Shown in pieces: positions 21,100-22,338 of a stretch of DNA of 64,000 bases. Below the pieces are notes generated by a model. That model was not told the origin of the DNA, made no database searches, and was given only the letters and a program-made list of their open reading frames with translations. The stretch comes from Betaproteobacteria bacterium (GTDB lineage Bacteria > Pseudomonadota > Gammaproteobacteria > Burkholderiales > Rhodocyclaceae): contig JACQYB010000038.1 in the NCBI GenBank assembly GCA_016208415.1, positions 22,730-86,729 of the forward strand, written 5' to 3'. A program made the position numbers and the translations under genes. Positions within the stretch are counted from its first letter, which is position 1. Every line of letters begins with the position of its first letter.

Positions 21100-22338
21100 T
21101 CAGCGCTTGCTGTAGGCGTATGGACTCCAATTGTCGGCCAGTACCGGCGGTGTCGGCCAGTTGCCATGCGGCGGAGGCGAGACAGTCGTCCATTCGAGGG
21201 ACTTCGACTCCCACGGATTGTCGCCGGCTTTCGGGCCCTGGATCGCGCCGAGAATCCAGTTGAGCAAGGTGATGGTGAAACCGATGGCAATGACGATGGC
21301 GCCGATGGACATCACCATCTGATCGTTGGCCACTTGCGGGAATTGCGCCCAGTCGTAGTAACGGCGCGGCAGGCCTTCCCGTACGCCCACCGACATCATG
21401 GTCCAGAAGATGACATTGGCGCCGACAAAGGTGAACCAGAAGCCGATATGTCCCCAGCGCTCGTTGAACATCCGGCCGGTCATCTTCGGGAACCAGTAGT
21501 AAACTCCGGAGAAGATCGCCAGAGTGCCGGATACCGCCATGACGTAATGGAAGTGGCCGACGACGTAGTAGGTTTCGGACAGATTTACCGTAATGGCCGT
21601 GATCGCCAGCGGGATACCCGTCAGACCGCCGATCAGGAACAGGAACATGGTTCCCAGCGCGTAGAGCATCGGCGTTTCGAACGTGATCGAACCCTTGTAG
21701 AGGGTCCCCACCATGCTGATCGTCAATAGGCCGACCGGCACGGAAATCAGCAGTGTCGTCACCATCTGACCGATACGCAGCCAGTCGGGCATGCCCGTAA
21801 CGTAAAGGTGGTGGATCCAGACTTCGCCGGAGATGAGGACGATGCCCCAGACGCCGGCATACACCGCCACCTTGTAGTTGAAGATCGGGTTCTTGGCGAA
21901 GGTGGCGAAGATGTCCATGATGATGCCCATGAACGGCAGGAAGATCACGTATACGGCCGGGTGCGAATAGAACCAGAACAGGTTTTGGTACGTGAGCACG
22001 TCTCCGCCCATGGTCGGGTCGAAGAAATGCGTGCCCAGGTACTTGTCGAAGCTGATCAGAAGCACCGCCGTACCAAGAACCGGAACATAGATCAACTGCA
22101 TGACGAAGGAGCCCATGATGCTCCTCTGGAAGCCCAGAATCATGATCGCGCCGTGGGCATACAACCAGACGTTATAGGTGGTCGGGTTGGCGGTGATGGT
22201 GGGACCCATGGCCGACAGCTCGGCCCGCATCAATAGCGCCATGATGCCGGCGACTACGAAGGCGGCGACCGATCCGATCAGATAGAGGATGCCGACGCGC
22301 TTGTGGTCGGTGGTGAAGATCCATTCCTTGAGATTCAT
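21100..22338 (-). CDS. heme-copper oxidase subunit I, A2-type motif, atypically short (412 aa)
   Basis: Strong SD (GGAGGAGG) upstream. Conserved ligands present: helix II His (LYAHGAIMILGF), YSHPAVY (CuB His plus cross-link Tyr; the YS motif replaces the Glu), WIHHLYVTGM (CuB His-His) and VVGHFHYVM (heme ligands). About 105-115 residues corresponding to TM III-IV are absent (see findings). Confidence 0.85.
   Translation of the reverse strand: MNLKEWIFTTDHKRVGILYLIGSVAAFVVAGIMALLMRAELSAMGPTITANPTTYNVWLYAHGAIMILGFQRSIMGSFVMQLIYVPVLGTAVLLISFDKYLGTHFFDPTMGGDVLTYQNLFWFYSHPAVYVIFLPFMGIIMDIFATFAKNPIFNYKVAVYAGVWGIVLISGEVWIHHLYVTGMPDWLRIGQMVTTLLISVPVGLLTISMVGTLYKGSITFETPMLYALGTMFLFLIGGLTGIPLAITAITVNLSETYYVVGHFHYVMAVSGTLAIFSGVYYWFPKMTGRMFNERWGHIGFWFTFVGANVIFWTMMSVGVREGLPRRYYDWAQFPQVANDQMVMSIGAIVIAIGFTITLLNWILGAIQGPKAGDNPWESKSLEWTTVSPPPHGNWPTPPVLADNWSPYAYSKR

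Follow-up and report, generated by a model that had tools for sequence, protein, structure and literature searches.

A strain-specific in-frame deletion, probably inactivating, in the coxI gene of a CyoCAB-type cytochrome c oxidase

Introduction

A heme-copper oxidase (HCO) subunit I that keeps every ligand of its metals and hemes and lacks two transmembrane helices raises a simple question: is it a working enzyme of reduced design, or a known oxidase that has been broken? Such a gene, coxI, lies in the stretch of 64,000 nucleotides analysed here (the window), which comes from a Betaproteobacteria bacterium of the family Rhodocyclaceae. An earlier note on this DNA had put forward a functional ten-helix variant resembling nitric oxide reductases (NORs), and had named a recent in-frame inactivating deletion as the alternative. 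That alternative has turned out to be the best supported, the gap being seen in no other genome: a known oxidase of the A2/CyoCAB kind has probably been inactivated by a real in-frame deletion in coxI, one that is recent and specific to the strain.

Assignment to the A2 type, subtype CyoCAB

Degli Esposti et al. 2019 (PMC6431628) described the operon of the "A2 type, subtype CyoCAB", and their supplement of 2021 (PMC8239418, Supplementary Table for Fig. S7) includes Sulfuritalea hydrogenivorans and Rhodocyclaceae bacterium SB9 among the CyoCAB members. Sulfuritalea proteins share the 90% identity cluster of the window protein, and SB9 (locus L085) is 73% identical to the ortholog P0126 over residues 4–524. 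Judged by its sequence, coxI is the catalytic subunit of this published cytochrome c oxidase. The helix VI motif of the A2 type is present as FWFYSHPAVY, with Y124, H126 and Y130 found in 67/67 members of the family alignment and S125 in 66/67; the earlier identification of YSHPAV as an A2-type motif therefore stands, and it concerns a near-invariant feature. Pfam searches of the window ORFs find the CyoCAB gene order as well, COX3-COX2-COX1 with an internal SCO gene. In a search of PDB, chains of A-family oxidases match with E values of 1e-60 to 1e-82, and those of ba3 (B family) with 1e-7 to 1e-9.

The segment VPVGLL of the window protein aligns with VPTGIK of the solved aa3 oxidases, which places V202 and L205 at the positions of the K-channel threonine and lysine. 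Across the 67-sequence alignment the lysine column reads L37/M23/T5/C1/I1, with lysine in none, and the threonine column V64/I2/M1. VPVGLL had thus been read correctly as devoid of the K-channel Lys and Thr, but the trait is common to the whole clade. CyoCAB members have M, T or L at the position of Paracoccus K354 and V or F at that of T351 (PMC8239418 supplement), and the table in that supplement classes these members as "modified", "hybrid" or "KC-channel". Because the absence of the lysine is a published trait of the clade, it is no peculiarity of the window gene.

A further residue of the same protein deserves mention. Glu172, encoded by window positions 21823–21825, lies four residues ahead of the CuB His-His pair (SGEVWIHH) and is shared by most of the clade (E 51, D 5 and V 9 of 67; alignment A3). 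This glutamate may form part of the modified proton pathway of the clade.

The deletion and its junction

Database profiles and solved structures match the 412-residue protein in two parts. Pfam COX1 gives a two-piece match whose main piece pairs residues 73–349 with profile positions 162–436, and phmmer against PDB chains aligns residues 6–82 with helices I and II of aa3 oxidases and residues 56–398 with helix V onward. Since both matches split at the same place, about 100 residues are missing between helices II and V. The NCBIfam CtaD model scores the ORF at 406 bits, under its cutoff of 670 bits. Alignment with orthologs of 524 residues shows a single clean gap of 112 residues, which begins directly after MILGFQ and ends where the sequence resumes at SI[LIM]GSFVMQ. 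In the DNA, the blastn alignments with the orthologous loci L024, L026, L001, L029 and L030 all break between window positions 22125 and 22124, and against each of these five loci the window is short of exactly 336 nt, in frame. The in-frame loss of some 105–115 residues that had been estimated for a subunit I of only 412 aa is thereby fixed at exactly 112.

The orthologs read ...TTCCAGA/TTCC... on the left flank of the lost segment and ...TTCGTCT/GGAGC... on the right, and the window reads ...TTCCAGA/GGAGC... across the junction. A search for microhomology or a repeat at the breakpoint found none, the junction being blunt (CAGA/GGAGC). An imperfect similarity about 20 nt away, ATCAT..GGCT, was considered as a mediator of the deletion and rejected, as it is retained on both sides. 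The junction codon AGG encodes Arg72, where all 66 relatives have an invariant tryptophan at the start of helix V.

These properties bear on whether the organism carries the deletion at all. It is unlikely that the deletion arose in sequencing or assembly, or that it reflects a minor variant of the population, in which case the real gene would have the full 524-aa form. The allele has been seen on a single contig only, and a second HCO gene of the same genome (described below) has a deletion of similar size, 323 against 336 nt, a likeness that might point to one technical cause for both. On the other side, the blunt coxI junction offers no repeat able to collapse an assembly graph, the nearby similarity survives on both sides of it, and the 323-nt deletion is accompanied by 7 nt of microhomology, as is typical of genuine slippage. 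The missing 113-aa segment is absent from the whole of the organism's own assembly, which is 99.96% complete and 0.57% contaminated, while the positive control matched in three other genomes (G018, G012 and G010). A split gene or a leftover contig carrying the segment was accordingly rejected, as the segment lies nowhere else in the assembly.

Helices, ligands and proton channels

AlphaFold models served to place the helix boundaries and carry no weight here as to stability. The model of a full-length ortholog, P0001 (pLDDT 88, pTM 0.90), has 12 helices, the first five of which span residues 12–40 (I), 52–87 (II), 96–117 (III), 141–168 (IV) and 181–213 (V). In this numbering the lost residues are 72–183/184. 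Helices III and IV have gone, together with the loops on either side of them, and so have the final 16 residues of helix II and the first turn of helix V; helix II, which bears the heme a ligand H62, is reduced from 36 to about 19 residues and is left without its cytoplasmic half. The earlier description of helices III and IV as missing is right for those two helices and too narrow at both ends, for the cut begins inside helix II and also takes the beginning of helix V.

The model of the window protein, a check that the earlier note had called for, has 10 helices instead of the twelve core helices of the full-length ortholog. The remnants of helices II and V are fused into a hairpin, a helix of residues 52–70 followed by a two-residue turn and a helix of residues 73–101, with Arg72 at the cytoplasmic turn. 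This hairpin has a pLDDT of 55–61, compared with 71–85 in the full-length model, within a window model whose mean pLDDT is 82. As an even number of passes has been removed, the predicted membrane topology is formally preserved in the 412-aa protein.

The metal and heme ligands are all retained, as the earlier note had claimed: H62, H126, H176, H177, H262 and H264 are all there, as is Y130, and each of them is found in 67/67 family members. The window protein thus has the six histidines and the cross-linked tyrosine that characterise a functional HCO subunit I. The proton pathways are another matter. The deleted segment holds the D-channel residues N81, D92, N99 and S155 of P0001, which we take to be the equivalents of N121, D132, N139 and S200/S201 of the Rhodobacter sphaeroides enzyme among A-family oxidases. 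Asparagines 81 and 99 and S155 are each conserved in 66/66 sequences and D92 in 64/66; all four lie within the deletion, so that the D-channel entrance has been lost as first described. Because the clade is without a canonical K-channel, the D-channel is its only conserved canonical route of proton uptake. With only the canonical D- and K-channels considered, the window allele does not have at least one conserved proton-uptake channel.

Distribution of the short form

A functional variant should be shared by close orthologs, and the comparison with them goes against the ten-helix variant proposed at first: all are full length, and the gap occurs in this genome only. No other copy of the deletion is found among the 120 best matches in a collection of 5.8 billion proteins, nearly all of which are about 520–540 aa long, the few shorter ones being partial or having other gaps. 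Among the 15 of 42 members listed for the 90% identity cluster, the 412-aa form occurs once, on one contig, and the remainder are 524–529 aa long, apart from one 267-aa entry labelled partial. The nearest ortholog, P0126, is 95% identical in protein and 88–92% in DNA and has 524 aa. In the species-genome scan, each of the 80 genome loci kept aligns over practically the full length of the 524-residue query. In a set of 40 scanned relatives, none of them of the same genus, three genomes of the same family carry the ortholog, each at full length. The junction sequence has 0 matches in metagenome contigs, a search of low power in which the intact-site control pattern itself matches only 5. The deletion in coxI is, at the level of sequence, unique to this genome among the orthologs examined.

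Smaller length variants may exist in the clade. P0008 (501 aa, from a JGI metagenome) is short of about 22 residues in the loop between helices IV and V and the start of helix V (alignment A1 columns 183–204), for which an effect of gene calling is possible.

Selection and the age of the lesion

Nei-Gojobori estimates were made on a triplet of the window gene, the L023 gene and an outgroup. The terminal branch of the window gene has dN of 0.007–0.010, dS of 0.31–0.35 and dN/dS of 0.02–0.03, and the sister branch has dN/dS of 0.07–0.10. About nine nonsynonymous changes are observed on the window branch, and the W to R change at the junction is the one private substitution that falls in a column with no other variation. 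The coxI lineage shows no relaxed selection and no sequence decay. Because constraint on the branch is not relaxed, the deletion must be very recent if coxI is dead; by a rough reckoning, a gene neutral since its deletion would have been so for at most about 5% of the terminal branch. A low dN/dS fits a very recent lesion and a protein still under selection equally well.

The operon and its neighbourhood

The genes around coxI are given in Table 1. The operon runs on one strand in the order COX3, a weak SCO-like gene, COX2, COX1, an orf and SCO1 by Pfam, with a divergent cytochrome c4 gene and ctaB upstream of it, and orthologous loci share this order. The open frame between coxIII and coxII is longer than the 261 aa of its orthologs, so its true start is probably internal, near 23920. 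The conserved ORF downstream of coxI was considered as a source of the missing helices and rejected, since the same ORF adjoins full-length coxI in orthologous loci.

Table 1. Coordinates of coxI, its deletion junction and the neighbouring genes in the window
Feature	Position	Strand	Remarks
SCO1/SenC copper chaperone, last gene of the cluster	19586..20317	-	Pfam
Conserved uncharacterised ORF that follows coxI	20405..21070	-	orthologs 193–207 aa
coxI (COX1), A2-type subtype CyoCAB HCO	21100..22338	-	412-aa deletion allele, minus 112 residues
Junction codon AGG (Arg72)	22123..22125	-	breakpoint between 22125 and 22124
coxII	22351..23187	-	intact CuA site (CNEYCGVSHSYM), without cytochrome c domain
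SCO/SenC-like open frame between coxIII and coxII	23138..24169	-	orthologs 261 aa
coxIII (COX3), first gene of the operon	23929..24687	-	252 aa, as in orthologs
Dihaem cytochrome c4-like gene, divergent	24753..25568	+	orthologs 221 aa
ctaB/UbiA-family heme O synthase	25513..26463	+	Pfam, orthologous loci

Collinearity with the orthologous loci ends at 26466, the end of ctaB (26464–26520 compared), and a RES-toxin region comes next. In orthologs ctaB is followed by COX15/ctaA (L002 1–854, L026 943–1905), a gene absent from that place in the window. A missing heme A synthase, which would have made the operon dead beforehand, was considered and rejected, as the organism's own COX15/ctaA copies are found on contig C50 (37026–37994), adjoining the broken NOR-like HCO gene described in the next section. 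In the closest relatives (L023 3070–6500, L024 3523–6044) the A2 cluster is followed by an opposite-strand COX1-family gene of 490 aa in a block that also has MoxR-type AAA and VWA/DUF58 genes (norQ/norD-like); this block is absent at the corresponding place in the window.

G+C content is 0.59–0.62 over the oxidase cluster and 0.66–0.71 in its flanks (window 20000–26000), and an ortholog is present in only 3/24 genomes of the same family. The contrast in composition and this sparse distribution fit a horizontal acquisition of the cluster.

Other heme-copper oxidase genes of the genome

The genome encodes an intact cbb3 oxidase subunit ccoN (TIGR00780, 770 bits) and has further PF00115 genes on contigs C19 and C50. 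A query with the helix III–IV segment against the whole of the organism's own genome (G000) found no other A-family oxidase, yet the same query detects the A1-type paralog of the relative G018 at E = 5e-20. For this reason the deleted coxI appears to encode the organism's only A-family oxidase.

A second HCO subunit I gene is broken as well. At C50:39022–40096 (loci L007/L108) a DNA alignment reveals a deletion of 323 nt, with about 7 nt of microhomology, which lies between the SAHH and GHFHA motifs and shifts the frame. In seven relatives the orthologous open frames are 561–770 aa long and match the organism's own 352-aa ORF only over residues 1–279. The full-length orthologs have GHSSQQIN in helix VI, with no tyrosine, and a small CuA subunit II encoded upstream; the C50 gene is thus one for a tyrosine-less, NOR-like HCO. 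This gene, and not the one in the window, is a plausible candidate for an sNOR-type enzyme of the organism. Two deleted HCO catalytic genes in one genome suggest a lineage that is shedding its heme-copper enzymes and relying on cbb3.

Interpretation

The preferred reading is that of a nascent pseudogene. In this one genome, 336 nt have been lost in frame, probably by an illegitimate, blunt-ended recombination, and with them the cytoplasmic half of helix II, helices III–IV and all the D-channel entry residues. The loss of the D-channel leaves no conserved canonical path of proton uptake, and we infer that the 412-aa product is non-functional or does not assemble. The retention of an intact cbb3 oxidase would explain why this loss is tolerated. 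Speaking against inactivation are the preserved frame, the even number of passes removed, the intact state of all the ligands and of the rest of the operon, and a selection that has not relaxed, as a working protein would also show.

The same points could favour a functional 10-helix HCO that binds both hemes and CuB, assembles with CoxII and CoxIII and serves as a non-pumping scavenger of O2 or NO. AlphaFold still builds the 52–70/73–101 hairpin at a mean pLDDT of 82, and the terminal-branch dN/dS is 0.03. This explanation is very unlikely. The form is unique among several hundred orthologs, the residues lost are 97–100% conserved in the family, and half of helix II is gone next to the heme a ligand H62; a low dN/dS is equally expected of a deletion that is simply recent, and AlphaFold does not report on stability. 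No heme-copper subunit I is known to have a core of fewer than 12 helices. That the 412-aa protein is made, assembles with CoxII/CoxIII and acts as a minimal non-electrogenic O2/NO scavenger without pore A (helices III–IV) and without both canonical channels is scarcely credible. Nothing beyond the preserved reading frame supports a functional 10-helix protein, whose likelihood stays within this low range; if it were real, the 12-helix core would not be obligatory.

There is virtually no chance that the window gene belongs with the sNOR (norSY-senC-orf1) nitric oxide reductases, a placement that the SCO/SenC genes and unknown ORF of the operon and the absent K-channel lysine might suggest, because Tyr130 of HPAVY is present and invariant, the best structural relatives are A-family chains and not ba3, the clade is already published as the A2 subtype CyoCAB, and a separate tyrosine-less HCO exists in the same genome on contig C50. 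According to Murali et al. 2024 (PMC11214002), sNOR, eNOR, gNOR and nNOR lack the active-site tyrosine and derive from the B family. The earlier comparison with NOR-like HCOs and with the norSY-senC-orf1 clusters therefore fails on the tyrosine, which the window protein has, and on B-family kinship, its E values to the A family being far lower.

For annotation, these results argue for marking coxI as a deletion allele, probably inactive, of a known A2/CyoCAB oxidase, and against counting it towards the aerobic or NO-reducing capacity of the organism. The CyoCAB family and its K-channel trait are already known, and no new enzyme class is present here; the family itself, with its D-channel and modified K-channel, is of more interest than the window allele. 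The shedding of HCOs in a lineage of the family Rhodocyclaceae is a small point of physiological interest.

Comparison with known systems

Like sNOR (norSY), the window locus has a CuA-type subunit II, a proton pathway that is not canonical and SCO/SenC genes in the vicinity. The NOR families are without the cross-linked tyrosine and branch with the B family, whereas the window protein has the tyrosine and belongs with the A family.

The caa3 oxidase of Thermus thermophilus has a canonical K-channel, a fused subunit I+III and a cytochrome c on subunit II. As the structural A2 reference (PDB 2yev; E = 2e-76), it shares with the window protein the A-family fold and YS in place of the helix VI glutamate, but it has 12 core helices and the window model has 10.

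The closest likeness is to the CyoCAB oxidases. The window locus shares with them the YSHPAVY motif, the order COX3-SCO-COX2-COX1 with extra SCO genes, a subunit II that bears CuA without a fused cytochrome c, and the replacement of the K-channel Lys by L, M or T and of the Thr by V. Unlike them, the window copy alone is short of 112 residues and has an arginine in place of the invariant helix V tryptophan.
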